Shown: in pieces, positions 9,565 to 58,560 of the stretch
Numbering within the stretch: the stretch's first letter is position 1
How the letters are laid out: each line of letters opens with the position of its first letter
NCBI GenBank assembly: GCA_030390025.1
Contig: CM059431.1
Coordinates: forward strand, 119,352,001 to 119,416,000
Origin: Squalus acanthias
Lineage: Eukaryota
Direction: 5' to 3'
DNA length: 64,000 nucleotides
Position numbers and translations under genes: made by a program
Notes under the pieces: generated by a model
Database searches by the model: none
Seen by the model: only the letters and a program-made list of their open reading frames with translations
Told to the model about the DNA's origin: nothing

Positions 9565-10642
9565 GCTGATGTAATAGATGGCAGGTCAAGTAGAGATCAG
9601 AGGAGCAATCTGTCAATGTTGTGATAGTTACTAGCAATGTGGTGAGAATGGCTTCCGAGGTTGCAGAAAAGACTTGCAAACTCTAGATACCTAAATCTGT
9701 GTTCAAAATGCACTCAGCAAAAACCTTTCCCATAGGCAGGTAAGCAGGTATCACGTGGGAGTTTTTATTGGGATATCCATGCTCTGCATTAATGACCTCG
9801 ATCAATGGCCACTGAGATTCCACCTCAGGTTGACAGACGTGGTTTTCCAGTCTGCGTGATTCCCGCGGTCATCCAGTGAACTTCAAAATGTCTGGTTAAA
9901 ATCTCTGTTAAGGGTCTGACAACAAGGATTTATTGAGCTTAATTAGGTCGCCCACCTCTGCCGTTCGGGTCTGTGGCACGCTGGCAAACGCGCCCAAGTT
10001 AAAGACGCGAGGGGGCGGGATGACGGAGCGTTCCCGACGTTCTCCCATTTTCTGCTACTTTTACTGCTGATCCATCTCCAAACCCGCACACACGGCACCA
10101 GGAAAATTTCGGCCAAGGAGTGTGATAAGTTAAAATGTTTATTAAAACCAGCATCAATGCATAAAGGCAGGACAGGGTCTATTGCCCACTTAAACATTCT
10201 ATACTCAACTCACGTAGCATAAGAAATAAAACAAGTGAATTAGTTTTTAGCCCTCCAGATAGCAGTGATAAAATAGTGTTATACATAAACGCAGAGATCA
10301 GAGAAGCTTGTCGCAAAAACAAAGTCATTAATGACTTTAATTTTCACGTATACTGGGAGAAGCAGAACAGCTCGGGTCCCAAAGGCAGCAAATTTCTTGA
10401 GTGTATTCGGGACATCTGTCATTAGTTAGACCTGCCCTGGCATGTTTAGGTTTTCAAATTTTTTGCGTGGCAAGTTGCTGAAAGTGCGAGCTGATAACAT
10501 TACACCGAGAGGGAAACAGGGCATCTGGGACCAGAGTGAACAGAGCAAGAAACTGTGTATCTGCTTAACCAATTAGATTGAAGGATTGTGAAATTAACAG
10601 CGTGAGGACTGAGAAGGAAGTGAAAATTAGAGTGGGTGAATG

Positions 10643-12265
10643 TGTAAGGGATCCTCTCCTGACCCTGCGTGTCTCGTAGCCTGTGAGGTTCACGCGGCTC
10701 TGTGCAGCCTGTATGTCAGTGCGGGTCTAGGCCTGGTCTCCAGCCAGTCTGGGAACACTAGACACCCCTGTGAGTGGTTCGAATCACTCTCCCTTACGGT
10801 TCTAGACACTGGACTTAGATGCGAGAGCAGTAATGGAGATAAAACTCATGTAGACTTGGTTTGAACGGTACGAAATGGAAAATCTTTATTGCATGATACT
10901 TAAAATTATGAAATACATGTCATATGCACAGATTAATGACAGTACAATCTTACAAACAGTTATAATCACTCTTAGGGAAACGAGGAACGACCGGCACAAC
11001 GTAAATAGGGCACACATTACAAATATCCTTAATCTTTAAACCCTCCCCTATCAATAACTATCCTAAAACTAGCTTCGTAGGATCCCGAGACTCATGCTCA
11101 CCACTCGTAATAACTCGGAGAAATCCCGAATAGCTGATCGGATGTTTTTCACCGCAGCACCCACGTGTTGGTCAGGAGATCTCCTGGTCCCACTTGTTTA
11201 CTGCTTCTGCTGCTCGGTCAGTCGGCTGGACCGTCCGCTGTAGTGAAGACCTCTGTTGGTTGGATACAGGGTATGGTGGAGCACCGTTGTCAATATCGCT
11301 GATACGATGTGTTTGCACAGTCCAGTTATCATTGATGCAATATGTCTTGTTAAAGAAGAAAACTTCCTGTCGAGAAGACTTGGCTGATCGACCTACAGGC
11401 GCGGTCGGGATTTACTGACCGTGGCGATGGATAAGGTCTTCTTCTCTTCTCCTCTCATCTCATCTCATCTCATCTCATCTCATCCCGGGCCTTCGGTTCA
11501 GCTGCCAGCTACCAACATAGGTCTTTGCAACAGTCTTTTACCCAGGAGCAGCCACGAGGTTACGAATCGACCGGATAAAACACAGGAGCAGCCACGATGA
11601 TAACAGCAGCAAGCGGCAAGAGTCAAGAGCAAAAGAGCAAGAGAGCGAATGGACGGTTTGGGCCTGCAATTATAGTGCACAGTTCTTCCGTTTCCCGCCC
11701 AACTACAATGTCCATTCTTTTGTTTAAGGTTTGGCGCCCAAAAATGTCCTGTATGGGTGATCTCTGTCCTTAATGGGTTTCGGGGCTACTCCTGAATGTT
11801 TGAGTACCTGTTAATATTTCTCCCATTGTTAAATCGGTCGGTGTTCCCCCTGGAGGGGTTTGGGGCTTCCAAGTGTCCTGTATACCTACCTGCTAACGGC
11901 TCTCTCATCGTAGAGCCGTTGGGAGTTTACATATTAATGTCCTTTGGATGGGCCCTTGATGGCTTTCCTTTGTACCTGGGAGACCGATCCCAGTATCGAT
12001 GTTTATACTGTAAACCCATAATGTCCTGTGTATTGTCTTCACTGTGCTGAATCGTTATCGATCCTGCAAAAATGTTTATTGGAACGCCATCTTGTCTGCC
12101 TGCTGAAAAGTCTCGAATGTTCTGTCACGCGGTGCGGCGGCCATTTTACAGGCTGCTTGTGTCCAATTTAAACCTGACAGCATTCCGCTGAAATAAAAGC
12201 TGTTTTGAACGAAACTTGTGTTTTCTCCTTATAAAAATGAAATCGCGATAATTGCGAATTCTACA
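10643..12265 (-). repeat. 3' LTR
   Basis: Direct repeat of 18307-19929; AATAAA on minus strand at 10885-10890. Confidence 0.97.
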
Positions 12266-12277
12266 GTCCCTCCTGTT
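12266..12277 (-). promoter_or_regulatory. Polypurine tract
   Basis: Minus-strand AACAGGAGGGAC abuts the TG of the 3' LTR; short and impure. Confidence 0.7.
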
Positions 12278-12693
12278 GATGCGAATAACTCCGCTTATCG
12301 TATCAAAAAATCTCAGTGGTGAGCAATCTTATCTCGATTTCACTCCGAATCCAGTAAATTAATCCCATAAAATTTTAACTTCACTAGGGTCTCTGTGTCG
12401 TCCTCATTTCCCAAGAAAAAATCACATTTTATATCACCGTAGGCATCATTTGCCCTTAAACTTACACCACTTGTTTTCCTTCCCGGCGTAACCAGGCCGA
12501 TACCTCACGCATCACCTGTATATTTGTCTTTTATTCAAGGGAAGGAAAAACAAAACCCAAAAAACCGAACAATCAACACCATCACCAAAATAAACAAATC
12601 CCGACTCTTAAACATGTCGAGTTTCCAACGTATTTACAATGAGTACAAACTTCCGCGGCGCACGTGGCGAGCGGGAGTGACGCCATTTTCCCA

Positions 12694-15045
12694 TTACACT
12701 GCGCTCTCATCGTGCACGCGCACGTAACGTTCTCGCCACTCTCCCGTGTTCTCATGCTTGGTGAGGCGCTTGTCTCTTTTACAATGTATGAACAAAAGGT
12801 ATACTACAATAAACACTTGACAGACGACTAAAATGTGGGAGGCTATTCTGACCCATGAGGGCACTTCAATATTCGTGAACAGATTCCACCACGGTGGAAC
12901 CACTATGTCCAAAATGTCTGTACCTATCTCGACGGTTTTCTGTTCTAATGTATAGAAATGCTTTTGTGACACCGCGACGGCTTTTAGAAGTTTGGTTAAA
13001 TGCTCGGGGAGAGGGGGAATGAGGTACCCAAAATGTGCGACAAATCGCTGCAAGTCGGTAAAATTCTCTTTTACTGTGAGATGAACAGTGGATGGTTCAG
13101 GGATTGGGATAATTCGCTGTTGTGCTACTTGAACTTCAGCCCTGGGTTTAAAACAGAAACTGCTGTCACTCACCGGATACCGGCTACGGTTTCCATGCTG
13201 GTAGTGTTGCGCTGCAGTGGTAACACAATATGTTCCACCCCCGATGTATGCTACCTGCGGAGGCACATGATCTTGTGCCATTGCCTCCATGGTGCAATTC
13301 ATGGACTTGGCGCCAGCCGTTCTGAACCCGCACTGTGGTGTTAAAAAGGCATTCAAGTGCTGGGGGCACAGTATTATGTGTGCTCCCCTGCCACGACAAC
13401 CAGAGAGATCTGTACCTGTCATCGTTTGCTCCCAGCGGATGACGTAAGGTGGAACTGCTGCATAATGAATGTGGGCTCCCCCCTGAATGACACCAATGTT
13501 CTCTACCCGATACACCGGGGCGGGCTTTGCTGTGTTGCCCAAAACCGGCATGCGTAAAACTATACCCATAATGGTATGGTTTGAACGTCCGCAGTCCACG
13601 GGGACTGGGTAAGCTTCTGAAGCTAGCCTGAGCTGGCACGGACTTAATGCGTTCTGAAAAGGGTGGAGCGCCCGCAGGTGTTTGTTACTTATCCAGGACG
13701 GAACCAAACCTTGTTTTAAATCCTCCAAATTACTGCGGCCCTCGCCCAGTAACCACGCCCCGTAAAGCACGCACACCTCGTTCTGCGCAGCTTGATCGGA
13801 TGCATTCCGATCTTCCCTAATCAGGGCATTTACCGTACGCGCATGTTTCTCCAGCTCTGCTATAATCTCTTTTAAGTGTAGTGTCATGGCTTGGTCCTCG
13901 TGCAGACCCGACCCTACCACTTTATTCTCATCTGTAAGAATATCCTTTAACTGTGTTTTTAAACCATTAATCTGGGTCTGCAGCTCCACACTGTCTAGAG
14001 CGTTGACCACAGATGTCCCTGTGTTAAAAGCAGTGAACGCATCGTTCACCAAACCCCTTCTTTGCCTCCCTACTTGGTCCAAAACTTCCTGCGGTGCGGT
14101 GTATAAACTTGTCTTATCGATTTCTGCAAAATCAAATTCGTAAAATTGCCTGAACATCTTGGTCAACAGGATCTGGTACAACTGTTCCGTCTTTTTGGGG
14201 CACCACTCTGGTAACCGTACCTCAGTGAGATTTAAAATCACCGAGGCCACCGCGTAATGTACCCCCTGAAATAGTATCTGGTCTGTGGGGACCAGTACCA
14301 AACCGTTCCCGGGTCCCTTACTAGTTTTAGGGCACCCTTCTTCCTCAGTTAGAACTACCGGAATCGTGGGCGGGGCTTTGCGTGGGCGCGTAATGAGCTC
14401 AGTGGCATTTACTGGGATCGGAGAGTATGGGGCTCCGCACCCCCTGGTGCTCGCATCCCACCTCATCCCCTGTCCGTTATCCTGCCACTGGTTAATAAAG
14501 AATATGGAGATGCCTTTGGGGCAAACGTACTTTGACCCCCACATACAAACATAAATCCCCTCATCTGGTTCCCACCATTTGTCCCAACAGACTTTCACTT
14601 GTCCATCTGTCCCCGTAATTGTCCGATGGGTATTATTACCCAGTCGCTCCCACTCAACCGAAGAGTTCCTCATAGTTTTGCTCAGCTTTCGCAGCCACCA
14701 CCATCGGCTCAATGGGACATTCCCACTGCAGGTCAAACAAATCCGTTTGCCGACGGTGACGCTGATCCTGGGTGCGATGATCCGTACTTTGGGGCACATT
14801 AAAGAAGTCTCTTTGTAGGCGAACCCCGATGTGCTGGAATACTCCGTTGAGTTCGTTCCCAGCCATCCTGGCCACCTTCCCTTGTGGAAATAGGTGCTGG
14901 TCCCTTCTGCCTTCCGTCTTCCGGTCCCATCCACCGCGATGGGGGCCGTGTCCCCGGAACATCCAAACACCACGACATCCTTGGTGAGGCCCCGATAGGC
15001 CAATCCACATCCGATTGCCACGAGCAAAACTAGAAGTCGTTCCAT
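12694..15045 (-). CDS. env: Envelope glycoprotein, class I F-like fusogen with N-terminal Ig-like domain (783 aa)
   Basis: Signal peptide, N-glycan sequons, furin site RQRR (aa 327-330) followed by fusion peptide GLVNDAFTAF.., heptad region, Cys-rich domain, TM aa ~734-753, 30-aa tail; open frame. Confidence 0.9.
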   Translation of the reverse strand: MERLLVLLVAIGCGLAYRGLTKDVVVFGCSGDTAPIAVDGTGRRKAEGTSTYFHKGRWPGWLGTNSTEYSSTSGFAYKETSLMCPKVRIIAPRISVTVGKRICLTCSGNVPLSRWWWLRKLSKTMRNSSVEWERLGNNTHRTITGTDGQVKVCWDKWWEPDEGIYVCMWGSKYVCPKGISIFFINQWQDNGQGMRWDASTRGCGAPYSPIPVNATELITRPRKAPPTIPVVLTEEEGCPKTSKGPGNGLVLVPTDQILFQGVHYAVASVILNLTEVRLPEWCPKKTEQLYQILLTKMFRQFYEFDFAEIDKTSLYTAPQEVLDQVGRQRRGLVNDAFTAFNTGTSVVNALDSVELQTQINGLKTQLKDILTDENKVVGSGLHEDQAMTLHLKEIIAELEKHARTVNALIREDRNASDQAAQNEVCVLYGAWLLGEGRSNLEDLKQGLVPSWISNKHLRALHPFQNALSPCQLRLASEAYPVPVDCGRSNHTIMGIVLRMPVLGNTAKPAPVYRVENIGVIQGGAHIHYAAVPPYVIRWEQTMTGTDLSGCRGRGAHIILCPQHLNAFLTPQCGFRTAGAKSMNCTMEAMAQDHVPPQVAYIGGGTYCVTTAAQHYQHGNRSRYPVSDSSFCFKPRAEVQVAQQRIIPIPEPSTVHLTVKENFTDLQRFVAHFGYLIPPLPEHLTKLLKAVAVSQKHFYTLEQKTVEIGTDILDIVVPPWWNLFTNIEVPSWVRIASHILVVCQVFIVVYLLFIHCKRDKRLTKHENTGEWRERYVRVHDESAV

Positions 15046-15329
15046 CCTTCCTTGGTTCCTGTGATCAGATAGAATGAGGTAGCCAGCCTCGCAAAAAGTC
15101 TCTGGCTTTTGTGAAGGGTGAGCGGGTCCCCTGACCTCGCCTCACGTAAACTTCAACGTTTGCTAAATAGACTTCCTCTAAACCTAGCCTTAAAACTCCC
15201 ATCATTTTATCGTTATCTGTTAAAAACACTACAAACTTAACCTTATTAAAACTACTTAAAACTTTAAACTAAAACTTAAAACCTTAAACTAATAACTTTA
15301 CAATGCCGCCCGTTCTCAGGGCGGCCCCT

Positions 15330-16490
15330 TTAAATCCTGAGAAGGCTGCTGCGAGCTCTTCCCGACGGTGGGAGGGCACTGACCCTTCCCTCTGATCTGC
15401 CGCAGCCTGTTGCTGCGCTGACCCTTTCCTCTGATCTGCCGCAGCCTGTTACTGCTTCGATGTGGCCTGTCTCTACCCGGGTTATCTTAACCTGAAACTT
15501 ACGCCCTGGGGCAGCCTGTGGACCTGACCACATCTTCCTGGGCTGGGGTACTCTGCTTGACCTACGGGGAATTGCTATGGGCGGGGGCTCCGTGACGGAC
15601 GGACCGGGTCCCGAGACCTTCAACGGGATGACCTGGGGTTCCATCACAGGCGCCAGCCCCGCCTCCGCTGACTCCGCCTCCCTAACCTCGGGGCTGGCAG
15701 TTCGGGGCCCCGCCCTGCTCGGCCCAGCAGGCGGCCCTTCACTCGCGAACTCTGCCTCCCCTGAGGACTGGACGTTCAAAGCGGGCGGCCACACCTCTGG
15801 GAACCACATAGCGGCTGGCCCGGCCTCCTCTAGCTCCTTCCTCCTGCTGTCGGGACCTGCAGCTTGTGTGTCCACCCCGTATGGATCTCTACCTAGCGGC
15901 CCCAATCCTTCCAGACCGTTCCTCTGAAACCACCCGTCATCATCACTATGCTCATCTGCACTATCCTCATCTGACCAGGGTACCCTGGGGTCCTCGTCAT
16001 CTAACCCCCAACTCCAGAAAAACGCTGCATGATCGTCCGGGATGTCCCTTCCCCTGATGCAAGCTGCTACGCCTGCCGGTGTGCCTTGTGGTCCTACCTG
16101 GGGCTGTGTTTTCCCACTCGCAGGTCTGGCCCCTCCCTTAAGACAGGCCACCGCCCCTGCTTGTTTCTGTGAAATCTCACCTGCTGGAGGCTGCAGATTT
16201 CTATCCTGTTTTAAATCCTTATACTCCCTGCTCCTGGCTACCCTGTAGGCTGCTTTTATCTCTCTAAGCTGCCCTTCTAGCCTGAGCACGTCTAACTTTC
16301 CCATTGATCGGGCGTTCTCCTCCCGCAGGGTCTGCTCTCTAAGCTGCCCTTCCAGCCCATCTATTTTCCCTATTAAGCGGGCGTTCTCCTCCCGCAAGGC
16401 CTGCTCTTTTAACCTGGCCTCCTCACCGCAGACCCCCTCCTGTGCGTGTCTTTTAAAAGGACACAGGTAGGCAGGCTGCGTGGACTCTAG
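15330..16490 (-). CDS. Non-Pol ORF in frame with gag (putative readthrough extension, ~386 aa; coiled-coil plus low-complexity)
   Basis: Frame is open from 16490, directly after the gag UGA, through ORF 15330..16397; the track start is a TTG, and the first in-frame ATG lies further downstream. Confidence 0.7.
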   Translation of the reverse strand, partial: LESTQPAYLCPFKRHAQEGVCGEEARLKEQALREENARLIGKIDGLEGQLREQTLREENARSMGKLDVLRLEGQLREIKAAYRVARSREYKDLKQDRNLQPPAGEISQKQAGAVACLKGGARPASGKTQPQVGPQGTPAGVAACIRGRDIPDDHAAFFWSWGLDDEDPRVPWSDEDSADEHSDDDGWFQRNGLEGLGPLGRDPYGVDTQAAGPDSRRKELEEAGPAAMWFPEVWPPALNVQSSGEAEFASEGPPAGPSRAGPRTASPEVREAESAEAGLAPVMEPQVIPLKVSGPGPSVTEPPPIAIPRRSSRVPQPRKMWSGPQAAPGRKFQVKITRVETGHIEAVTGCGRSEERVSAATGCGRSEGRVSALPPSGRARSSLLRI

Positions 16491-18302
16491 TCATGGGGCA
16501 CTATTAGACGGTCCTGCGGCACCTACGGGGCCGGTTGCGACCGCCACCTGTCCACGCGCATTCAAAACCATCTTGCGCATGACTCCTAACACTGCTTCGA
16601 GGTCTTCAGGAGAGGTGGGTGCCTTTGCTTCCTTAGCCGGGACAGGCGCCTGGGTTCGGACCGCGGGATTTTTATCCTTGGAATCCTTCCAAGGGTTCCT
16701 GCAGTGCTTGCGCCAGTGCCCTGTCTTCCCACACCCGTAACAGGCATTACTTGCCTGTGGGGCGCGATTACCCTCCTGATGCCACTCTCTTTGAGTCGGG
16801 GCTGCGGGTCGTACCTCATGTACTCTTCCCTTAAAGGGACGTGTCGTCATACCCCTTATGTTACGGTAACCTAACGTGAGTCGATTCAAGACCGACTCTT
16901 CCGTAAGGTTGAGGTCATTGGGATCGAACCAGGCTTTTGCCTGCTCTCTAACGGCTGGTAAACTGTTGGCTATTATGCACCTAAGCCAATGAATTAAAGC
17001 GGCGCCTTCCACATCTTCGCGTTCGGGCGCACCTAGACAGCTGCGCTCATATACTGGCCACAGCCTGTCGGCAAAAACCTTCGGGGGTTCTCCCTCCATC
17101 TGCACTGTCTGTCCCACTCTAGCAAACGGACCTCCGTCGTTCGCTCCCACTACTTCTAGGACCTCATTTTTCAATTCCTCATAACTTTTATTACCCCTCT
17201 TGCTATCGCCTGAGAGACACTGAAGGACCGAGCTATCTAAAGAGAACAGCAGCATTTTTGCTGTCTCCCCATCATCGCAGCCGTTGATGGCTGCGGCTTG
17301 CTCAACTTCCCTAAAATGTACGGAAGGGTCGTCTATCTCGGTCAGCTTCCTTACGTGGTTTATCATGGCCCTCAGCTGATGTGAACTGTGAGGCAACACC
17401 AGCTGTCCGAGGAGATCCCCCGGTTCTTCCCCACCGTTTCTGCTTGGGCCCCTTTTAATCCCCGTTACTGGATACAACGATCCCTTTTCTACTTCCTTTT
17501 CAACGGGCTCTTTTGTTTCTTCCGTTGCTTCCTCCCTAACCCAGGTTTCTGAATAGCTGGGTGGCGCGGAGGGCGCAGTGGCTACTACTTCTTCTGCTTT
17601 ACTTGGTGGGGAATTTCTAAATCTCTCATTTACTAGCGGCTGGCGTGCCGACGGATTAATAAGGCACACCATGCCGTTCGCATTATTCACGGCCTTTTTG
17701 AGGCTCTCTATCTCTTTTTCGCAGGCGCTATGGTCGGCTCCCTGAAACTTATCCTCAAGGGCCAACTTATACGCCGACCTAACCCCCATTAAGCTCTCTT
17801 CTTGAGTTCTTATCTGGGCAGCTTGACGGTTACATCTTTCCTTCATCCTACTCTCGTTTAATTTTGCTTCAGTGATCTGGCACTCGAGATACTCTACCCT
17901 TGTTTTAAGGTAGCTGGAGACTTCCTGGCTTTCCTGGCGTAACTCATTTAAACTCTTAATGAGCGCCTCCCCTCCAGAAACCTTCTCCTCCATTTCCTCC
18001 TCTAGATGCTTGATTCGAGCGGTTAGCGCTGTATTGGTCTGGTTTGAAATCTGAACCTGCCTTTTGTAGCACATAAGCCAGACTGCTTTCTCAACTGCCT
18101 TTTTATGCTCCTTACTATCCGTCCACCTTTCAGCTGCCTCTAGTGGGCTCTTATCCGCTAACAATTCGCTTATCCACTTTTTCGTTAGATTAACCTTTCC
18201 AAACACGTAATCCGCTATCTTTTCCTGCATAACATTTCGTACAGTCATTCCAAAATCTAACACACTACCCTCTCGCTGCCAGCCTCGTGCCGCGGTCGCC
18301 AT
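16491..18302 (-). CDS. gag: Gag polyprotein with long coiled coil, late domains, CA and CCHC zinc knuckle (603 aa)
   Basis: CYGCGKTGHWRKHC knuckle (16701-16742), MHR-like QMEGEPPKVFADRL, PSAPPSY motif. Confidence 0.92.
   Translation of the reverse strand: MATAARGWQREGSVLDFGMTVRNVMQEKIADYVFGKVNLTKKWISELLADKSPLEAAERWTDSKEHKKAVEKAVWLMCYKRQVQISNQTNTALTARIKHLEEEMEEKVSGGEALIKSLNELRQESQEVSSYLKTRVEYLECQITEAKLNESRMKERCNRQAAQIRTQEESLMGVRSAYKLALEDKFQGADHSACEKEIESLKKAVNNANGMVCLINPSARQPLVNERFRNSPPSKAEEVVATAPSAPPSYSETWVREEATEETKEPVEKEVEKGSLYPVTGIKRGPSRNGGEEPGDLLGQLVLPHSSHQLRAMINHVRKLTEIDDPSVHFREVEQAAAINGCDDGETAKMLLFSLDSSVLQCLSGDSKRGNKSYEELKNEVLEVVGANDGGPFARVGQTVQMEGEPPKVFADRLWPVYERSCLGAPEREDVEGAALIHWLRCIIANSLPAVREQAKAWFDPNDLNLTEESVLNRLTLGYRNIRGMTTRPFKGRVHEVRPAAPTQREWHQEGNRAPQASNACYGCGKTGHWRKHCRNPWKDSKDKNPAVRTQAPVPAKEAKAPTSPEDLEAVLGVMRKMVLNARGQVAVATGPVGAAGPSNSAP
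18288..18301 (-). promoter_or_regulatory. Primer-binding site, tRNA-Arg(UCG)-like
   Basis: TGGCGACCGCGGCA begins 5 nt after the 5' LTR and is complementary to the recalled vertebrate tRNA-Arg(TCG) 3' end ...TGCCGCGGTCG-CCA. Confidence 0.75.
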
Positions 18303-18306
18303 TTTC

Positions 18307-19929
18307 TGTAAGGGATCCTCTCCTGACCCTGCGTGTCTCGTAGCCTGTGAGGTTCACGCGGCTCTGTGCAGCCTGTATGTCAGTGCGGGTCTAGGCCTGG
18401 TCTCCAGCCAGTCTGGGAACACTAGACACCCCTGTGAGTGGTTCGAATCACTCTCCCTTACGGTTCTAGACACTGGACTTAGATGCGAGAGCAGTAATGG
18501 AGATAAAACTCATGTAGACTTGGTTTGAACGGTACGAAATGGAAAATCTTTATTGCATGATACTTAAAATTATGAAATACATGTCATATGCACAGATTAA
18601 TGACAGTACAATCTTACAAACAGTTATAATCACTCTTAGGGAAACGAGGAACGACCGGCACAACGTAAATAGGGCACACATTACAAATATCCTTAATCTT
18701 TAAACCCTCCCCTATCAATAACTATCCTAAAACTAGCTTCGTAGGATCCCGAGACTCATGCTCACCACTCGTAATAACTCGGAGAAATCCCGAATAGCTG
18801 ATCGGATGTTTTTCACCGCAGCACCCACGTGTTGGTCAGGAGATCTCCTGGTCCCACTTGTTTACTGCTTCTGCTGCTCGGTCAGTCGGCTGGACCGTCC
18901 GCTGTAGTGAAGACCTCTGTTGGTTGGATACAGGGTATGGTGGAGCACCGTTGTCAATATCGCTGATACGATGTGTTTGCACAGTCCAGTTATCATTGAT
19001 GCAATATGTCTTGTTAAAGAAGAAAACTTCCTGTCGAGAAGACTTGGCTGATCGACCTACAGGCGCGGTCGGGATTTACTGACCGTGGCGATGGATAAGG
19101 TCTTCTTCTCTTCTCCTCTCATCTCATCTCATCTCATCTCATCTCATCCCGGGCCTTCGGTTCAGCTGCCAGCTACCAACATAGGTCTTTGCAACAGTCT
19201 TTTACCCAGGAGCAGCCACGAGGTTACGAATCGACCGGATAAAACACAGGAGCAGCCACGATGATAACAGCAGCAAGCGGCAAGAGTCAAGAGCAAAAGA
19301 GCAAGAGAGCGAATGGACGGTTTGGGCCTGCAATTATAGTGCACAGTTCTTCCGTTTCCCGCCCAACTACAATGTCCATTCTTTTGTTTAAGGTTTGGCG
19401 CCCAAAAATGTCCTGTATGGGTGATCTCTGTCCTTAATGGGTTTCGGGGCTACTCCTGAATGTTTGAGTACCTGTTAATATTTCTCCCATTGTTAAATCG
19501 GTCGGTGTTCCCCCTGGAGGGGTTTGGGGCTTCCAAGTGTCCTGTATACCTACCTGCTAACGGCTCTCTCATCGTAGAGCCGTTGGGAGTTTACATATTA
19601 ATGTCCTTTGGATGGGCCCTTGATGGCTTTCCTTTGTACCTGGGAGACCGATCCCAGTATCGATGTTTATACTGTAAACCCATAATGTCCTGTGTATTGT
19701 CTTCACTGTGCTGAATCGTTATCGATCCTGCAAAAATGTTTATTGGAACGCCATCTTGTCTGCCTGCTGAAAAGTCTCGAATGTTCTGTCACGCGGTGCG
19801 GCGGCCATTTTACAGGCTGCTTGTGTCCAATTTAAACCTGACAGCATTCCGCTGAAATAAAAGCTGTTTTGAACGAAACTTGTGTTTTCTCCTTATAAAA
19901 ATGAAATCGCGATAATTGCGAATTCTACA
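18307..19929 (-). repeat. 5' LTR
   Basis: Direct repeat of 10643-12265; TATA-like 19334-19338, splice donor at 18765, AATAAA 18549-18554 (all minus strand). Confidence 0.97.
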
Positions 19930-20782
19930 AATGCAATGTCAAATCAGCTACAGAAAGAGAAATAAAGAAAGGGAAAGAAAGACTGGATTATGAGAGAAAA
20001 AGAGGCAAAGGAAAAGGGAAAAAATTAAAATTTGCCTTTTTTAAATCTCCAATAGTTAAAACCTGAAGGAATGAGACTTCACACTTGTAATAGTTAATTT
20101 TCAGTGCAAGAGAGGTTGATTGGCAGTAATTAACACATCATGTCATTAAAAGGGTACGTAGACTGAAATGGACAAGACTTAACTTTCTGTGGCGAGTTTA
20201 GTTCATATCTACGCACGAATACAGCAACTTTATGTAATTCAATGCATTTCATTGGTGAGGCAGATGGCAACATGCCATTTTCATGAATCTAATGATGGAG
20301 CAGCGCATGTCGGACAGCAAGTTTTGGATATTTGAGTTTAACCGCGCATCTGCCCCTCGCCTGTAGTTACTGTACCATTTGCGCATAAATAACGGCGAGC
20401 GCCATTAGCTTCACTTTTAAATCAACAGCAAGAAATAAAAGGAGAGAAAGGAACCCTTAATACTACAAAACTTTTCATTTTAACCAGCATTTTAATAGGA
20501 AATCAGACAAAACTTGCTGGGAAAAGCCCTCCATAGGGACACAACCAGGGGAGGGAATATAGATAGAAGGGAACAGTCAGGACTGGGAACAGTCCAAACA
20601 TAGGCACAGAGTCTGGGGACGGGAATATGGATAGAAGGGAACAGTCAAAGTTGGGAACAGCCCCTTGAGATGGACAGAGCCATCCATACAGGGGGATTGT
20701 AAATAGGTGAACAGTCCCATTGAGTAATCTCAGCCCAGCACATCACGGGGAGTCCTGGGTGTCCCTATTCACCACTGTGACC

Positions 20783-24483: not shown

Positions 24484-27054
24484 TCGACATCTCTCTTCAG
24501 CAGCACCGACGCACTCTATCTCAAAGCTGTCCGGGTCCACAGTTCCATTTCATCCTTCGACTCATCCGACGCTTCAACAAAAAACTTTTCTTCTTCCTTT
24601 CCGATGTCAAGGATTGCAAGCTTCAACAACTCTTGGACACTAAAGCCCCTCCGGAACCTTCTTCCCCTTCACTTTCCTCTGACCCCATCCCTTCTCCCAA
24701 TCTCACTCCCTGCCGTGTTTTCACTATCCCCTCTGACCTTCCCCTCTCTGACTCCGAACGATCAGTCCTCAGCAAAGGCCTGACCTTCATCCCCTTACGC
24801 CCCCATCTCAATGAATTTCGAGCTCGGCACGATGCTGAGCTCTTTTTCCGCCGCCTCCGTCTCCGTGCCCACTTCTCTGGCCAGGAGTCTTCCCCCCGCA
24901 CGGCTGACCCTTTCTCCCGCTTTCAGAATTCTCGTTCCACCTGGACCCCTCCCTCTGGCCTCTTACCCTCTCTTGATCTTTTCATTGCTAACTGCCGCCG
25001 TGACATCAGCCAGCTCAATTTCTCTGCTCCCCTCACTCACTCCAACCTACCTCCCTCTGAACTTGGAGCACTCCATTCTCTCCGATCCAACCCTGACATT
25101 GTCATTAAACCTGCTGACAAGGGTGGCGCTGTTGTTGTTTGGCTAACCGACCTCTACCTAGCGGAAGTTGAACGCCAACTCTCTGACACCTCCTCCTACC
25201 TCCACCTGGACCATGACCCCACTACCGAACATCAAGCCACCGTGTCCAAGACTGTCACTGACCTCATCTCCTCTGGAGATCTTCCCCCCACGGCTGCCAA
25301 CCTCATAGTTCCCCAACCCCGCACAGCCCGCTTCTACCTCCTTCCCAAGATCCACAAACAGGACTGCCCCGGTAGACCCATCGTTTCAGCCTGTTCTTGC
25401 CCCACGGAACTTATCTCTTCCTATCTCGACTCTATTTTTTCTCCCCTTGTCCAGTCTCTTCCCACCTACATCCGCGACTCTTCCGATGCCCTCCGCCATT
25501 TTAACAGTTTCCAGTTTCCTGGCCCCAACCGTCTCCTCTTCACTATGGATGTACAATCCCTCTACACCTCCATTCCCCACCAGGATGGCCTGAGGGCGCT
25601 CCGCTTCTTCCTTGAACAGAGGCCCAACCAGTCCCCATCCACCACCACCCTCCTCCGCCTGGCTGAACTTGTTCTCACATTGAACAACTTCTCCTTTGAC
25701 TCTACCCATTTCCTCCAAATTAAAGGTGTTGCTATGGGTACCCGCATGGGTCCTAGCTATGCCTGCCTTTTCGTGGGATATGTGGAACACTCTTTGTTCC
25801 AGTCCTACTCGGGTCCCCTCCCTCACCTCTTTTTCCGGTACATTGATGACTGTATCGGTGCCGTCTCCTGCTCTCGCCCTGAACTAGAACATTTCATTCA
25901 CTATGCTTCCAATTTCCACCCTTCCCTCACCTTCACATGGTCCATCTCCGACTCTTCCCTTCCCTTCCTCGACTTCTCCATCTCCATCTCTGGGGATAGG
26001 TTATTGACTAACATTCACTACAAGCCCACCGACTCCCACAGCTACCTGGACTACACTTCCTCCCACCCCGCCTCCTGTAAGGACTCTATTCCATTCTCCC
26101 AGTTTCTCCGTCTCCGCCGCATCTGCTCTGATGATGCCACCTTCCATACCAGTGCTTCCGACATGTCTTCCTTTTTCCTCAACCGAGGATTCCCCTCTAC
26201 CGTGGTCGACACGGCCCTCGACCGTGTCCGTTCTATCTCCCGCACATCTGCCCTCACCTCTGCCCCTCCCTCCCGGAACCACGATAGGGTTCCCCTTGTC
26301 CTCACCTTTCACCCCACCAGCCTCCACATTCAACGGATCATCCTCCGCCATTTCCGCCACCTCCAGCGTGATCCCACCACCAAACACATCTTCCCCTCAC
26401 CTCCCCTTTCAGCATTCTGTAGGGACCGCTCCCTCCGCGACACCCTAGTCCACTCCTCTACCACCCCCAGCACCCCTTCCCCTTCGCCCGGCACCTTCCC
26501 GTGCAAGCGCAGGAGATGCAACACATGCCCTTATACCTCCCCTCTTCCCACTGTCCAGGGCCCCAAACACCCCTTCCAGGTGAAACAGCGATTTACTTGT
26601 ACTTCCTGCAATTTAGTATACTGTATTCGCTGCTCACGATGTGGTCTCCTCTACATTGGGGAGACCAAACGCAGATTGGGTGACCGCTTTGCGGAACACC
26701 TCCGTTCAGTCCGTAAGGGGGACCCCGAGCTCCCGGTGGCCTGTCACTTTAATTCACCGCTTCACTCCCACTCTGACCTCACCGTCCTCGGCCTATTACA
26801 CTGTTCCACGGAAGCTCAGCGTAAGCTCGAGGAACAGCACCTCATCTTTCGTTTAGGCACGCTACAGCCCTCTGGACTCAATATCGAGTTCAACAATTTT
26901 AGATCATAACCTCAGCTCCAATCACATTTATATTTTATTTTATCCACCCTTTTATTTGTCCCCCCCCCACCTTTTTTTTCCTCCTAGAAGCTGGCAGCTG
27001 TCCTTCATTCTGCCAGTGGATTTCACACTTCATTCAGCCTTAATCTGTCACATT
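24484..27054 (+). mobile_element. Penelope-like retroelement, 5'-truncated
   Basis: RT plus GIY-YIG ORF; flanked by a 14-bp direct repeat TCTCTGTGCCACTC (24470-24483, 27055-27068). Confidence 0.9.
24633..26909 (+). CDS. Penelope-like RT + GIY-YIG endonuclease (open frame, no native start)
   Basis: IKPADKGG, YLLPKIHK, MDVQSLYT, GVAMGT, RYIDD; NLVYCIRC..C..LYIGET..RF.EH endonuclease; frame stays open upstream to the truncation point. Confidence 0.92.
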   Translation: MDTKAPPEPSSPSLSSDPIPSPNLTPCRVFTIPSDLPLSDSERSVLSKGLTFIPLRPHLNEFRARHDAELFFRRLRLRAHFSGQESSPRTADPFSRFQNSRSTWTPPSGLLPSLDLFIANCRRDISQLNFSAPLTHSNLPPSELGALHSLRSNPDIVIKPADKGGAVVVWLTDLYLAEVERQLSDTSSYLHLDHDPTTEHQATVSKTVTDLISSGDLPPTAANLIVPQPRTARFYLLPKIHKQDCPGRPIVSACSCPTELISSYLDSIFSPLVQSLPTYIRDSSDALRHFNSFQFPGPNRLLFTMDVQSLYTSIPHQDGLRALRFFLEQRPNQSPSTTTLLRLAELVLTLNNFSFDSTHFLQIKGVAMGTRMGPSYACLFVGYVEHSLFQSYSGPLPHLFFRYIDDCIGAVSCSRPELEHFIHYASNFHPSLTFTWSISDSSLPFLDFSISISGDRLLTNIHYKPTDSHSYLDYTSSHPASCKDSIPFSQFLRLRRICSDDATFHTSASDMSSFFLNRGFPSTVVDTALDRVRSISRTSALTSAPPSRNHDRVPLVLTFHPTSLHIQRIILRHFRHLQRDPTTKHIFPSPPLSAFCRDRSLRDTLVHSSTTPSTPSPSPGTFPCKRRRCNTCPYTSPLPTVQGPKHPFQVKQRFTCTSCNLVYCIRCSRCGLLYIGETKRRLGDRFAEHLRSVRKGDPELPVACHFNSPLHSHSDLTVLGLLHCSTEAQRKLEEQHLIFRLGTLQPSGLNIEFNNFRS

Positions 27055-37437: not shown

Positions 37438-39480
37438 GTCCAACCTTGGCTAACAAGAGAAGTAAAAGATAGTATTGGATCAAAGGAAGAGGCTTATAAT
37501 GTTGCCAAAAAGAGTAGTAAGCCTGAGGATTGGGGGGAGAATTCAGCAAAGGAGGACCAAGAAATTGATAAAGAAAGGGAAAATAGAATATGAGAGTAAA
37601 CTAGCGAGAGAAATAAAAACAGACTGTAAAAGCTCCTATAGATATGTAAAAAGGAAAAGATTAGCCAAAGTAAATGTGGGTCCCTTACAGACTGAGACAT
37701 GAGAAATTATAATGGGGAATAAGGAAATGGCAGAGCAATTGAACAAATACTTTGTGTCTGTCTTCACGGAAGAAGATGCAAAAAACTTCCCAGAAATAGT
37801 GGAGAACCAAGGCTCTAACGAGAATGAGGAACTGAAAGAAATTAGTATTAGTAAAAAAATAGTACTGGAGAAATTAATGGAACTGAAAGCCAATAAATCC
37901 CCTGGACCTGATGACCTACATCCTAGGGTTTTGAAAGAGGTGGCTATAGAGATAGCGGATGCAATGGTTGTAATTTTCCAAAATTCCATAGATTCTGGAA
38001 TGGTTCCCGTAGATTGGAAGGTAGCAACTGTAACCCCACTATTTAAGAAAGGAGGGAGAGAGAAAACGGGGAACTACAGACCAGTTAGCCTGACATCAGT
38101 AGTAGGAAAAATGCTAAAATCTATTATTAAGGATGTGGTAACAGGGCACTTAGAAAATAATAATGAGATTGGGCAGAGTCAACATGGATTTATGAAAGGG
38201 AAGTCGTGTTGGACAAATCTGTTAGAATATTTTGAGGTTGTAACTCGCAGAATAGATAAGGGGGAACCAGTGGATGTGGTGTATTTGGATTTTCAGAAGG
38301 CATTCCAAAAGGTGCCACACAAGAGGTTATTAAACAAAATTAGGGCTCACGGGATTGGGGGTAATATATTAGCATGGATTGAGGATTGCTTAACGGACAG
38401 AAAAGAGAGAGTAGGAATAAACGGGTCATTTTCGGGTTGGCAGGATGTAACTAGTGGGATACCGCAAGGATCAGTGCTAGGGCCTCAGCTATTCACAATC
38501 TACATCAATGATTTGGATGAGGGGACCAAATGTAATATATCCAAGTTTGCTGATGATACAAAGCTGGGTGGGAATGTAAGTTATGAGCAGGATGCAAAGA
38601 GGCTTCAAGGGGATATAGACAGGCTAAGTGAGTGGACAAGAACATGGCAAATGGAATATAATGTGGTGAAATGAGAAGTATTCACTTTGGTAGGAAAAAT
38701 AGAAAAGCAGAGTATTTTTTAAATGGTGAGAAATTGAGAAATGTTGATGTTCAGAGGGACCTGGGTGTCCTTGTACATGAATCACTCAAGTTAACATGCA
38801 GGTACAGCAAGCAATTAGAAAGCAAATGGTATGTTGGCCTTTATTAAAAGAGGATTTGAGTATAAGAGTAAAGACATCTTAATGCAATTATATAGGGCCC
38901 TGGTGAGACCACACCTGGAGTATTGTGTACAGTTTTGGTCTCCTTACCTAATGAAGATATACTTGCTATAGAGGGAGTACAACAAAGGTTCACGAGACTG
39001 ATTCCTGGGATGGGGGGATTGTCCTATGAGGAGAGATTGAGTAGACGAGGCCGATATTCTCTAGAGTTTAGAAGAATGAGAGGTGATCTCATTGAAACAT
39101 ACAAAATTCTTACAGGGCTTGACAGGGTAAATGCTGGGAGAATGATTCCCCTGGCTGGGGAGTCTAGAACCAGGGGTCACAGTCTCAGAATAAGTGGTTG
39201 GCCATTTAGGACTGAGATGAGGAAACATTTCTTCACTCGGAGGGTGGTGAATCTTTGGAATTCTCTACCCCAGAGAGCTGTGAAGACTCAGTCGTTGAGT
39301 ATATTCAAGACAGAGATCGATAGATTTTTGAATATTAAGCGAATCAAGGGATATGGGGATAGTGCTGGAAAGTGGAAATGAGGTAGAAGATCAGCCATGA
39401 TCTTATTGAATTGCGGAGCAGGCTCGAAGGGCTAAATGGCCTACTCCTGCTCCTATTTCTTATTTTCTTATTTTCTTATG
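37438..39480 (+). mobile_element. CR1 LINE 3' half (degraded ORF2)
   Basis: ORF 37712..38674 with NYRPVSLTS, YLDFQKAF, PQGSVLGP, KFADD; (TATTTTCT)n tail. Confidence 0.93.
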
Positions 39481-41263: not shown

Positions 41264-43601
41264 ACTACAACAAAAAGAAAATACTGCAGATGCTGGAAAT
41301 CTGAAATAAAAACAGCAAATGCTGGAGATACTCAGCAGGCCAGGGAGCATCTGTGAAGAGAGAAACAGAGTTAACGTTTCAGGTCGATGACCTTTCGTCA
41401 GAACTGGAAAAAGCAGGAAATGGAACAGATTTTTAAGCAAGGGCAGGGGCTGGGAAAGGGGGGAGGGGATGAAAGAACAAAAAGGAAGGTCTGTGATAGA
41501 AGGCAGGAGAGGTTAAGAGACATTAAGAGATATTCAAGGCAAAAGGAGATGGTAATGGGACAGGTTAAGTAACAAAGGATGGCTCGAGATGAAGTGTGAA
41601 TTGCACTGGCAGAATGAAAGACAGCTGCCATGTGGGAGAGAAGAAAAAAAGACACAGACAAAAGGTGTGGATGAAAAATATATATATGATAGGGGCCGAG
41701 GTTATGATCTGAAATTGTTGAACTCTATGTTGAGTCCAGAAGGCTGTAAAGTGCCTAATCGAAAGATGAGGTGCTGTTCCTCAAAGTTCCGCTGAGCTTC
41801 AGTGGAACAATGCAAGAGGCCGAGGACAGTGAGGTCTGAGTCGGAGTGGAGCGAAGAATTAAAGTGACAGGCGACCGGAAGCTCGGGGTCCCCCTTACGG
41901 ACTGAACGGAGGTGTTCCACAAAGCGGTCACCCAATCTGCGTTTGGTCTCCCCAATGTAGAGGAGACCACATCGTGAGCAGCGAATACAGTATACTAAAT
42001 TGCAAGAAGTACAACTAAATCGCTGTTTCACCTGGAAGGGGTGTTTGGGGCCCTGGACAGTGGGAAGGGGGGAGGTATAAAGGCATGTGTTGCATCTCCT
42101 GCGCTTGCACGGGAAGGTGCCGGGCGAAGGGGAAGGGGTGTTGGGGGTAATAGAGGAGTGGACCAGTGTGTCGCGGAGGGAGCGGTCCCTTCGGAATGCT
42201 GAACGAGGAGGTGAGGGGAAGATGTGTTGTTGGTGGGATCATGCTGGAGGTGGCGGAAATGGCGGAGGATGATCCGTTGACTGTGGAGGCTGGTGGGGTG
42301 AAAGGTGAGGACAAGGGGAACTCTATCGTGGTTCCGGGAGGGAGGGGCAGGGGTGAGGGCAGAAGTGCGGGAGATAGAACGGACACGGTCAAGGGCCGTG
42401 TCAACCACAGTAGAAGGGAATCCTCGGTTGAGGAAAAATGAAGACATGTCAGAAGCACTGGTATGGAAGGTGGCATTGTCAGAGCAGATGCAGCAGAGAC
42501 GGAGAAACTGGGAGAATGGAATCGAGTCCTTACAGGAAGCGGGGTGGGAGGAAGTGCAGTCCAGGTAGCTGTGGGAGTCAGTGGGCTTGTAGTGAATGTT
42601 TGTCAATAACCTATCCCCAGAGATGGAGATGGAGAAGTCGAGGAAGGGAAGGGAAGAGTCGGAAATGGACCATGTGAAGGTGAGGGAAGGGTGGAAATTG
42701 GAAGCAAAGTGAATGAAATTTTCTAGTTCAGGGCAAGAGCAGGAAACCGCACCGATACATTCATCAATGTACTGGAAAAAGAGGTGAGGGAGGGGACCTG
42801 AGTAGGACTGGAACAAAGAGTGTTCCACGTATCCCATGAAAAGGCCGGCATAGCTAGGACCCATGCGGGTTCCCATAGCAACACCTTTGATTTGGAGGAA
42901 GTGAGTGGAGTCAAAGGAGAAGTTGTTCAATGTGAGAACATGTTCAGCCAGGCGGAGGAGGGTGGTGGTGGATGGGGACTGGTCGGGCCTCTGTTCAAGG
43001 AAGAAGCGGAGCGCCTTCAGGCCACCCCGCTGGGGGATGGAGGTGTAGAGGGATTGTACGTCCATAGTGAAAAGGAGACGGTTGGGGCCAGGAAACTGGA
43101 AACTGTTAAAGTGGCGGAGGGCGTTGGAAGAGTCGCGGATGTAGGTGGGAAGAGACTGGACAAGGGGAGAAAAAATAGAGTCGAGATAGGAAGAGATAAG
43201 TTCCGTGGGGCAAGAACAGGCTGAAACGATGGGTCTACCAGGGCAGTCCTGTTTGTGGATCTTGGGAAGGAGGTAGAAGTGGGCTGTGCGGGGTTGGGGA
43301 ACTATGAGGTTGGCGGCCATGGGGGGAAGATCTCCAGAGGAGATGAGGTCAGTGACAGTCTTGGAAACGGTGGCTTGATGTTCGGTAGTGGGGTCATGGT
43401 CAGGTGGAGGTAGGAGGAGGTGTCGGAGAGTTGGCGTTCAGCTTCCGCTAGGTAGATGTCGGTTCGCCAAACAACAACAGCACCACCCTTGTCAGCAGGT
43501 TTACTGACAATGTTGGGGTTGGATCTGAGAGAATGGAGTGCTGCAAGTTCAGAGGGAGGTAGGTTGGAGTGAGTGAGGGGAGCAGAGAAATGGAGATGGC
43601 C
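41264..43601 (-). mobile_element. Penelope-like retroelement, frameshifted, with complete 3' end
   Basis: Close paralog of 24633..26909; 10-bp TSD GATAAAGCCT (41254-41263, 43602-43611). Confidence 0.92.
41369..41406 (-). ncRNA. Minimal type I hammerhead ribozyme motif
   Basis: Minus strand cAGTT-CTGACGA-aAGGTCatcGACCT-GAAACGTT-AACT: intact core, 5-bp stem II, palindromic ACGT stem III. Confidence 0.75.
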
Positions 43602-57500: not shown

Positions 57501-58560
57501 TATATTACCCCCGATCCCATGTACCCTTATCTTGCATAGCAACCTTTTATGTGGCACCTTATCGAATGCCTTTAGGAAATCCAAATATACTACATCCATT
57601 GGTTCCCCTTTATCCACCCTGCTAGTTACATCCTCAAAAAACTCTAATAAATTTATGAAACACGATTTCCCTTTCATAAAACCATGTTGACTCTGCTTAA
57701 AAATATTATCATTTTCTAAATGCCCCAATACCACTTCCTCAATAATGGATTCCAGCATTTTCCCGACGAGTGATGTCAGGCTAACTGGCCTGTAGTTCCC
57801 TGTTTTGTCTCTCCCTCCTTTGTTGAATAGCTGGGTTACATTTGCTACCTTCCAATCCGCTGGAACCGTTCTAGAATCTAGGGAATTTTGGAAGATCACA
57901 ACCAATGTAACCACCATCGCTGCAGCCACCTTTTTTAGAACCCTATGATATAGGCCAACAGGTCCAGGGGATTTGTCAGCTTTTAGTCCCATTAGTTTCT
58001 CAAGTACTTTTTCTCTACTGTTATTAATTACATTAAGTTCCTCACTCTTATTAGCCCCTTGGTTCCCCACTATTTTTGGTATGCTTTTTGTGTCTTTTAC
58101 TGTGAAGACAGATAGAAAATATTTGTTTAAAGTCTCTGTCATTTTCTTATTCCCCATTATAATTTCACCTCAGCCTCTAAGGGACCAATGCTTACTTTTG
58201 CTACTCTTTTCCTTTTTACATACTTGTAGAAGATCTTACAGTCTGTTTTTATATTTCTTGCTAGTTTACTCTCATATTGTATTTTCTCCCTTTTTATCAA
58301 TTTTTTGGTCATCCTTTTGGTTTCTAAAGCTTTCCCAATCCTCAGGCTTACTACTATTTTTCGCAACATTATAAGCCTCTTCTTTTAATCTAATACTATC
58401 TTTAACTTCTTTAGTTAGCCATGGATGGATCACTTTTCCCGTGGAGTTTTTATTTCTTAATGGAATGTATATTCGTTGAGAACTTTGGAATATTTCTTTA
58501 AATGTTTGCCACTGCTTATCTACTGTCATACCTTTTAATCTAATTTCCCAATCTACCTTA
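54502..58560 (-). mobile_element. CR1 LINE with nested CR1 (about 55081-56330) and MITE
   Basis: ORFs 57417..58157, 55451..56455 and 54459..54899 are CR1 ORF2 pieces; two separate 3' tails. Confidence 0.88.
56626..57302. mobile_element. PIF/Harbinger MITE related to 36204-37095 (opposite orientation)
   Basis: GGGGTAAAAATT / AATTTAGCCCCC termini, TTT flanks, shared subterminal sequence. Confidence 0.85.

Follow-up and report, generated by a model that had tools for sequence, protein, structure and literature searches.

The fusion (F) proteins of paramyxoviruses are usually studied as fusion machines that are triggered by a separate attachment protein. Whether a protein of this type might carry an attachment domain of its own is the question raised by the envelope protein (Env) of an endogenous retrovirus in the genome of Squalus acanthias (GenBank assembly GCA_030390025.1). 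The long terminal repeat (LTR) element concerned lies on the minus strand of a 64,000-nucleotide stretch of contig CM059431.1 (positions 119,352,001 to 119,416,000 of the forward strand), here called the window, to whose numbering all coordinates refer. In our reading, an immunoglobulin (Ig)-like sandwich and a linker rich in Pro and Thr are set on the F2-like N-terminus of a class I fusogen with the F fold, and the sandwich is proposed to be a receptor-binding head. Taken as a whole, we regard this reading as reasonably probable.

Domain layout of the envelope protein

The env gene and the predicted parts of its product, numbered in amino acids (aa), are the following.

12694..15045, minus strand: env open reading frame (ORF), 783 aa, intact.
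14989..15045, minus strand: signal peptide, about aa 1-19, with a hydrophobic N-terminus (MERLLVLLVAIGCGLAYRG) and an AlphaFold helix at aa 2-14; the cleavage point is a presumed one.
14326..14988, minus strand: N-terminal extension, aa 20-240, without counterpart in paramyxovirus and pneumovirus F.
14530..14781, minus strand: Ig-like core, aa 89-172, suggested by AlphaFold strands, VIA-align matches, a sub-threshold match to Ig_3 and a low ratio of nonsynonymous to synonymous change (dN/dS).
14326..14433, minus strand: Pro/Thr-rich linker, aa 205-240, with the sequon N213; 8 Pro and 4 Thr in 36 residues; predicted local distance difference test (pLDDT) below 50 over aa 170-234.
14056..14325, minus strand: F2-like segment, aa 241-330, matched in superpositions with the N-terminus of F2 in solved F structures, and with the furin-type site R327-Q-R-R330 at its end.
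12865..14055, minus strand: F1-like ectodomain, aa 331-727, with the fusion peptide GLVNDAFTAF..., a long helix at aa 353-444, a beta-rich head at aa 477-645 and a helix at aa 680-711.
12781..12855, minus strand: transmembrane segment, about aa 731-755, a hydrophobic run within an AlphaFold helix at aa 730-766, followed by a 28-aa tail.

The features of an F-type fusogen are present, namely a basic site with a fusion peptide, two heptad helices (aa 353-444 and 680-711) and a C-terminal transmembrane helix (aa 730-766). Cleavage is predicted at RQRR330, which directly precedes the hydrophobic stretch GLVNDAFTAF, and a basic cleavage site occupies the same column in six of the seven other rows of an alignment of eight full-length Envs (A3). 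The linker, which an initial annotation made from the sequence alone had placed at about aa 205-240, has the composition claimed for it and terminates in a C238-P239 motif that marks the start of the conserved body. Four of the ten N-glycosylation sequons of Env fall within aa 20-240 (N65, N127, N137 and N213), and Cys residues in the N-terminal part stand at positions 13, 29, 84, 103, 106, 153, 167, 175, 203 and 238.

Sequence of the Ig-like module

The Ig-like module was described in the initial annotation by C106, W115-117, a D-x-G-x-Y-x-C motif and a Cys spacing of 61 aa, and every one of these elements is present in the translation as read by script. Positions 14491 to 14787 (minus strand) encode Env aa 87-185. 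The B-strand motif RISVTVGKRICLTC ends at C106, and the Trp triplet W115-W116-W117 follows at the distance from the B-strand Cys (about 10-15 residues) at which the C-strand Trp of Ig domains is expected. A second motif, VKVCWDKWWEPDEGIYVC, ends at C167 and contains D161-x-G163-x-Y165-x-C167 (D161-E-G-I-Y-V-C167), which is the tyrosine corner D-x-G-x-Y-x-C. The 61 residues between C106 and C167 lie within the range of about 55-75 that is usual for Ig domains, and the two Cys would form the core disulfide.

The conservation of these positions was counted over the non-gap rows of an 89-row alignment (A4), which combines relatives found in databases with open stretches, taken without alteration, of diverged copies from this genome. 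Cys is kept at the position of C106 in 37 of 42 rows and at that of C167 in 45 of 48. The W116 column shows Trp in 35 of 37 rows and the W117 column in 30 of 36, the other six having Phe or Tyr. Gly occupies the G163 column in 37 of 41 rows. At Y165, Tyr occurs in only 26 of 47 rows, and the Asp of the tyrosine corner is not conserved, since the D161 column holds mostly Glu (21) or His (12). As far as the alignment can tell, the conserved positions of the module are the canonical Ig positions, a pattern that goes beyond chance.

Family searches returned Ig domains repeatedly. The Pfam family Ig_3 matched the window Env at aa 88-167 with E 0.42 for the whole protein and E 0.11 for aa 1-250. Among 17 slices of the module taken from diverged copies in this genome, 15 matched Ig_3 at the same position (best E 4.9e-4), and it was the only family to recur. 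Matches to Ig_3 were likewise found in the relatives P0067 (E 0.0027) and P0009 (E 0.0085), and the frog-clade relative P0034 gave a V-set match (E 0.045). Two sequence searches against the PDB yielded non-significant top rows in which Ig domains stood in register in three of five cases (JAM-A and two antibody VL chains) and in four of seven (MXRA8, CRTAM twice and VEGFR3), the E values of these in-register rows being 0.3-1.3. A PDB profile search with another alignment (A2) was uninformative on the module, being spoiled by the zinc-finger part of the chimeric protein P0003. In a protein-language-model comparison, all neighbours of the window module with an assigned family belonged to Ig families (scores 0.78-0.80), and the neighbours of the N-terminus of a frog relative were Ig families too (0.82-0.84).

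Predicted structure of the module

An AlphaFold model of the full-length Env based on the 89-row alignment had a mean pLDDT of 65, with 10-residue block means of 49-77 over aa 91-170. In this model the core of the module is formed by strands at aa 89-97, 102-107, 116-121, 141-146, 149-154 and 164-169, and some residues from aa ~30-51 join the sandwich. When the model was compared with 48,161 chains by VIA-align, 24 of the 50 matches listed covered the region from aa 29-32 to aa 171-176, and all 24 were Ig-superfamily domains (Z 7.6-8.2; root-mean-square deviation (rmsd) 1.7-3.5 Å over 77-88 aligned residues). These neighbours include CD79b, CD8 alpha, NCAM2 Ig1, titin, Dscam Ig7, an obscurin-like protein, variable (V) domains of T-cell receptors (TCR) and antibodies, CD147 and the skate IgNAR V domain. 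The targets were often covered over nearly the whole domain (for example 81/95, 77/90 and 80/93 residues), at an identity of 8-19%. A two-sheet sandwich that superposes on Ig domains is therefore seen in the model, at a pLDDT of ~50-77. A separate model of aa 1-250 was too poor to count; with it, Foldseek returned nothing at E <= 0.001, and Ig V domains were frequent among the weaker matches.

Several of our results weigh against an Ig fold and lend themselves to another explanation, according to which the region is rich in beta strands without being Ig-like, the Cys/Trp/Tyr pattern is a coincidence in a Cys- and Trp-rich glycoprotein, and AlphaFold drew the commonest sandwich. None of the sequence tests for an Ig fold was significant. 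Every Pfam Ig match stayed under the 30-bit gathering score, with no Ig profile above threshold, and the window's own 127-aa slice had no Pfam match at E <= 1. With the module profile (A5), the lowest E value for any PDB chain was 0.036, which belonged to a non-Ig ArfGAP, and Ig proteins scored 0.29-0.97. The language-model scores of 0.78-0.84 fall below 0.9, under which such a score is a lead only. The pLDDT in the Ig region reaches only ~50-77, and the model of aa 1-250 alone (9-row alignment) had a mean of 37. The Z of about 8 lies inside the warning range of VIA-align, as Z 7-8 is also a typical best score for models without a real match. The additional Cys (C103, C153) and Trp residues are unusual in Ig domains. 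Hidden Markov model (HMM) comparison could not demonstrate homology of the module to the N-termini of the more distant Envs from sharks and frogs; an HMM of the close N-terminal group scored about 0-1 bit against those of P0011, P0012, P0019, P0034 and P0048.

A coincidental pattern would, however, hardly be expected to bring up Ig-superfamily domains in all 24 of the structural matches concerned, at an rmsd of 1.7-3.5 Å and mostly over near-whole target domains, nor the same Pfam family at the same position in 15 of 17 copies, and it is the canonical Ig positions that are conserved. We consider the non-Ig explanation unlikely. An Ig-like sandwich of the V/I-set kind, comprising aa ~30-175 with a core at aa 89-172, is what the model suggests, and we hold this fold to be likely. 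The Ig-like fold proposed in the initial annotation has thus gained moderate support from conserved residues, a sub-threshold Ig_3 match and a predicted structure that superposes on Ig domains.

The F-type body

The part of Env that follows the linker was modelled with higher values, the 10-residue blocks being mostly at a pLDDT of 80-94 over aa 241-310 and 421-650 (two were lower, 69-77). Within the F2-like segment, block means of 94-88 over aa 241-300 went down to 77 and 57 by aa 320. With Foldseek against the PDB, the top match was human parainfluenza virus 3 (hPIV3) F (1ztm, E 7.6e-12) among 240 matches at E <= 0.001, which also comprised postfusion F of respiratory syncytial virus (RSV) and F proteins of Langya virus, Newcastle disease virus (NDV), parainfluenza virus 5 (PIV5), Nipah virus and others. 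VIA-align placed the body at Z 9.8-11.5 to nine F structures, including those of PIV5, NDV, measles virus, human metapneumovirus (hMPV) and RSV, for example with an rmsd of 5.9 Å over 278 residues (hMPV, 7sem) and of 6.2 Å over 287 residues (RSV, 8wsq). Among predicted viral structures, Env matched Mononegavirales glycoproteins, baculovirus F and paramyxovirus F0.

At the level of sequence, PF00523 did not match the window Env at E <= 1, and a profile of the eight full-length Envs (A3) retrieved no F protein from the PDB. An intact related ORF in this genome (L014) reached E 0.036 with PF00523, which is under the cut-off. Structure only, in the form of the predicted model, thus supports the paramyxovirus and pneumovirus F fold of the Env body from aa 245, and the F-like body of the initial annotation holds in this sense (Foldseek E 7.6e-12, Z up to 11.5), PF00523 remaining unmatched. 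The solved F chains begin, with their own residues ~24-38, opposite Env aa 243-245; aa 20-240 are therefore an N-terminal addition without counterpart in solved F. This agrees with the earlier statement that F proteins generally lack such an Ig module.

Distribution and origin of the module

Among public proteins, those most similar to the window Env belong to a skate (74% identity), a sawshark and the whale shark, and less similar ones to other sharks and to frogs; searches based on protein words contributed few further relatives. The module itself is conserved at 45-72% identity in the skate, sawshark and whale-shark fragments and in one protein of unrecorded source. In the S. acanthias genome, 5830 candidates for diverged env copies were found, of which 150 were scored, all above E 1e-71; the copies examined are 49-73% identical to the window Env over alignments that cover the N-terminus. 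Distant full-length Envs of sharks and frogs align to the window Env only from a 'CP...G-L' motif, aa 238 onward. Their N-termini of 140-190 residues show a V-x-I-x-C strand, a Trp about 10-15 residues on, and a hydrophobic stretch leading to G-x-x-x-C. In the relative P0037 the CP motif directly follows the signal peptide, so the module is dispensable in the family. The check on presence and absence that had been suggested with the initial annotation found the module in skate and shark copies, Ig-like N-termini in shark and frog relatives, and no module in P0037.

A second, diverse Env lineage was observed in this genome (L011-L030), whose identity to the bamboo-shark protein P0012 ranges over 34-81%. 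At least one of its ORFs is intact, with 784 aa (L014:1189-3540). Starting at aa 154 of the window Env, the two proteins are 27% identical, and they have the E-F strand region of the module (W-x-x-[FW]-W...G-x-Y) in common. The sawshark gene models P0002, P0003 and P0010 fuse Env fragments to host genes (Niban-like, zinc-finger) and are probably annotation chimeras.

The initial annotation had gone further and taken the module for a captured host Ig domain. If the capture were recent, the virus would have picked up an exon of a host Ig-superfamily gene, possibly as an immune decoy. The Ig fold is indeed abundant in vertebrate hosts, lymphocyte receptors (CD79b, CD8, TCR and IgNAR V) are among the structural neighbours, and the module is a modular stretch with linker-like flanks that is absent from P0037. 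The search for the nearest host Ig protein was run, with phmmer over 1.84 billion representatives, but none of the 49 proteins returned at E <= 0.001 was recognised as a host Ig-superfamily donor; the 26 looked at individually were either fragments resembling Env or gene models with pieces of Env fused to them. The identity to solved Ig domains is only 8-19%. Moreover, the module occurs in the skate, sawshark and whale-shark copies as well as in many subfamilies of this genome that are 49-73% identical, and between these subfamilies the synonymous sites are at or near saturation (proportion of synonymous differences, pS, 0.72-0.82). The claim of a recent capture is not borne out by these data, and we regard it as quite unlikely. 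The module is an old part of the Env lineage in cartilaginous fishes rather than a recent host pick-up, and probably it is old in the related frog Envs too. Host capture, if there was any, was ancient and has left no detectable donor.

Selection on the module and recent spread of the family

Rough estimates of dN/dS were obtained between subfamilies by the method of Nei and Gojobori. Only four pairs among the other copies were usable, because there the synonymous sites are unsaturated. In these four pairs dN/dS was 0.06-0.11 for the Ig core (aa 89-172), 0.10-0.30 for aa 20-88 and 0.28-0.61 for the linker (aa 173-240), the fastest-evolving segment; for the fusion body, two pairs gave usable values, of 0.11-0.12. 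Pairs of the window with another copy were mostly saturated and, where a value was obtained, gave 0.17-0.43 for aa 20-88 and 0.18-0.40 for the linker. The Ig module is under purifying selection.

The same tendency is seen among young copies. The 3.7-Gb genome holds at least 57 intact env copies without a stop codon that encode an about 100% identical protein (from 12,861 first-look candidates). Nine of these (L002-L010), which were chosen by protein score and are thus a biased sample, were compared with the window. All nine are collinear over ORF2, env and the 3' LTR; the form without pol has therefore itself multiplied. At the nucleotide level they diverge from the window most in the 3' LTR (2.73%), followed by the spacer (2.1%), env (0.54%) and the Ig core (0.22%). 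They encode one identical Env, which differs from the window Env at two residues, both in the F1 body, and of the 30 variable env sites 28 are synonymous. Neutral decay would not be expected to leave such a pattern, which suggests that env was under strong purifying selection while the copies spread. Given the low dN/dS and the mostly synonymous variation of the young copies, the Ig module is a constrained part of a constrained protein. The many intact, near-identical copies make the family a candidate for recent activity, and the copies offer rich natural variation for the mapping of constrained parts of Env.

Proposed function of the module

The layout of Env suggests how the module might work. 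Cleavage of the furin type at RQRR330 would leave the Ig module and the F2-like segment together as a small outer subunit. This subunit would sit on the F1-like fusion subunit, with the Ig module atop the fusion machine, where it could bind a cell-surface receptor. The Ig head would thereby replace the separate attachment protein of the paramyxovirus type, and the F-type fusogen would work alone. Cleavage at this site remains a prediction, and receptor binding by the Ig module is a proposal.

The module could instead act mainly as a regulatory cap or shield that holds the prefusion state or serves as a glycan mask, and not in receptor binding. The four sequons out of ten in aa 20-240 would fit such a role, as would the location on the F2-like subunit beside the fusion peptide region. 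Furthermore, the rate of evolution of the Ig core is as low as that of the fusion body (dN/dS 0.06-0.11 and 0.11-0.12, respectively), while a receptor surface engaged in an arms race might evolve faster. The flanks, however, do evolve faster, with dN/dS up to 0.61, and no second envelope gene able to supply attachment was found in the window element. A cap or shield is also compatible with receptor binding, so the two roles are not exclusive. As the main function of the module we consider shielding very unlikely, and the receptor-binding head remains our preferred interpretation.

A broader interpretation can be put forward only tentatively. It sees in Env a self-sufficient F-type fusogen that has an Ig-superfamily domain as built-in attachment head, in a lokiretrovirus-like lineage of cartilaginous fishes and frogs, with the organisation of surface and transmembrane subunits (SU-TM) realised on an F scaffold and a family that spreads, now or recently, by env-dependent reinfection. 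If this were true, such reinfection would explain why a gag-ORF2-env derivative without pol exists in dozens of copies with identical Env. An F-fold protein with an Ig-like head of its own would show attachment and fusion combined on one scaffold, and the head would offer a concrete domain with which to study how a little-known lineage of retroviruses uses receptors.

The element around the env gene

Besides env, the element consists of the following parts.

10643..19929, minus strand: whole LTR element (5' LTR, gag-like ORF, ORF2, env, 3' LTR), 9287 bp, with paired LTRs, TG..CA termini and a 4-bp duplication.
18307..19929, minus strand: 5' LTR, 1623 bp, 100% identical to 10643-12265 across 1623 bp.
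16491..18302, minus strand: gag-like ORF, 603 aa, with one CCHC knuckle (zf-CCHC sub-threshold, E 0.086).
15330..16397, minus strand: ORF2, 355 aa from TTG or 324 aa from ATG, coiled coil followed by low complexity, in the expected position of pol.
10643..12265, minus strand: 3' LTR, 1623 bp, with a purine-rich tract just before it.

The target-site duplication AATG (10639-10642 and 19930-19933) flanks the element. The two LTRs are identical to each other over all 1623 bp, and the element is a very young endogenous retrovirus. A domain search of its three ORFs found no reverse transcriptase, RNase H or integrase domain. In the related copies L061 and L063, the ORFs that precede pol share 33-53% identity with the gag-like ORF, whereas ORF2 had no tblastn match in L061-L063. 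The ATG of the gag-like ORF starts 4 nt past the end of the 5' LTR (window 18298-18306), so that the expected primer-binding site overlaps the gag start.

Other retroelements are abundant in the window. Five more ORFs with reverse-transcriptase matches were found on the plus strand (25545-26909 and 37712-38674) and on the minus strand (42028-43320, 55451-56392 and 57417-58157); a weak GIY-YIG match in one of them may indicate a Penelope-like element. The region 12000-18700 was compared with contigs from three sequencing runs, presumed from a guessed run type to be of RNA, and from one run presumed to be of DNA; the contigs of the three had no joints, and contig depth cannot rank the parts. Near-identical env sequence was present in sequencing runs of seven organisms from 11 studies (54-76% of the sampled 31-letter words), and contigs of one run from one of the seven span the whole internal region at a likeness of at least 95%. 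The family is either common to close relatives or has moved between species.

Family assignment and comparison with known systems

The affiliation of the family can be judged from related env copies, upstream of which pol was found (L061, L062 and L063) with RVT_1, RT_RNaseH, a second RNase H (RNase_H, PF00075) and integrase, and in one case SH3_Tf2-1. L062 and L063 carry the dual RNase H, that is RT_RNaseH_2 or RT_RNaseH together with RNase_H PF00075, in elements with a related env; the first RNase H domain in the pol of related copies is degenerate. Among named sequences, this pol is closest to gene models called 'NYNRIN-like' from two frogs and the coelacanth (42-44% identity), followed by Ty3/gypsy elements at 32% or less. 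Dual RNase H and an F-like Env are given as lokiretrovirus hallmarks in the accessible parts of PMC7947760 and PMC9040795. The window copy lacks pol and so departs from the LTR-gag-pol-env structure of a lokiretrovirus, which the related copies approach with pol upstream of env. Judged by these sequence comparisons, the family is likely lokiretroviral, and we describe it as lokiretrovirus-like, with the window copy as a derivative without pol.

According to the accessible part of the founding survey and its supplement table (PMC7947760), none of five chondrichthyan genomes was positive for lokiretroviruses, and frogs such as Xenopus tropicalis and Rana catesbeiana were positive. Our data extend F-type retroviral Envs to cartilaginous fishes, where that survey, as far as accessible, reported none. 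F-like Envs in this retroviral lineage were already known; the Ig-like N-terminal module on them is new to the searchable literature, in which it goes unmentioned, though supplements may list vertebrate Env models. The term 'immunoglobulin' is absent from the accessible text of PMC7947760, PMC9040795, PMC13524379 and PMC13709493. The initial annotation had made novelty depend on whether the domain is already annotated, and the answer is mixed: the Chiloscyllium relative P0012 carries the automatic UniRef name 'Ig-like domain-containing protein', but the searchable literature makes no mention of the module.

The lokiretrovirus Env described by Wang and Han (2020, PMC7947760, accessible part) resembles the window Env in many respects. 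Both belong to LTR elements and have a Mononegavirales F-like Env with signal peptide, R-x-K/R-R site, fusion peptide, coiled coil and transmembrane segment, and frogs and the coelacanth, the nearest pol sources here, are among the host groups reported there. In contrast to the window Env, the published model, as far as accessible, lists no Ig domain ('immunoglobulin' occurs 0 times), and it matched PF00523 at 2.2e-7, which the window Env does not.

The host V/I-set domains (CD79b, CD8 alpha, NCAM2 Ig1, the titin I-band and IgNAR V) share with the module the predicted fold, the Cys of the B and F strands, the Trp of the C strand and the G-x-Y-x-C motif. The window module differs from them in belonging to a viral glycoprotein, in its identity of only 8-19%, in its scores below the Pfam thresholds, in the candidates for an extra Cys pair (C103/C153) and in a Trp-rich E-F region (W154, W157 and W158).

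The SU of gammaretroviruses consists of an N-terminal receptor-binding domain with an Ig-like sandwich core, a proline-rich region and a C-terminal domain. The order of parts in the window Env, with a sandwich head, a proline-rich linker and fusion machinery, is similar, a general likeness with which we claim no homology. The gammaretroviral receptor-binding domain was absent from the 50 structural matches listed, which leaves room for a relationship. The fusion parts differ, as gammaretroviral Env has a gamma-type TM, whereas that of the window Env has the predicted F fold.

Most paramyxoviruses and pneumoviruses have a separate attachment protein (HN, H or G), unlike the window element, which encodes none. 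Their F proteins (1ztm, 2b9b, 3maw, 7sem and 8wsq) are only 7-16% identical to Env, without a sequence-level match, and have no N-terminal Ig module. Common to both are the fold, as predicted for Env from aa 245 to ~650, and the same order of a small N-terminal subunit, a basic site, a fusion peptide, a long heptad helix, a second helix and a transmembrane segment.

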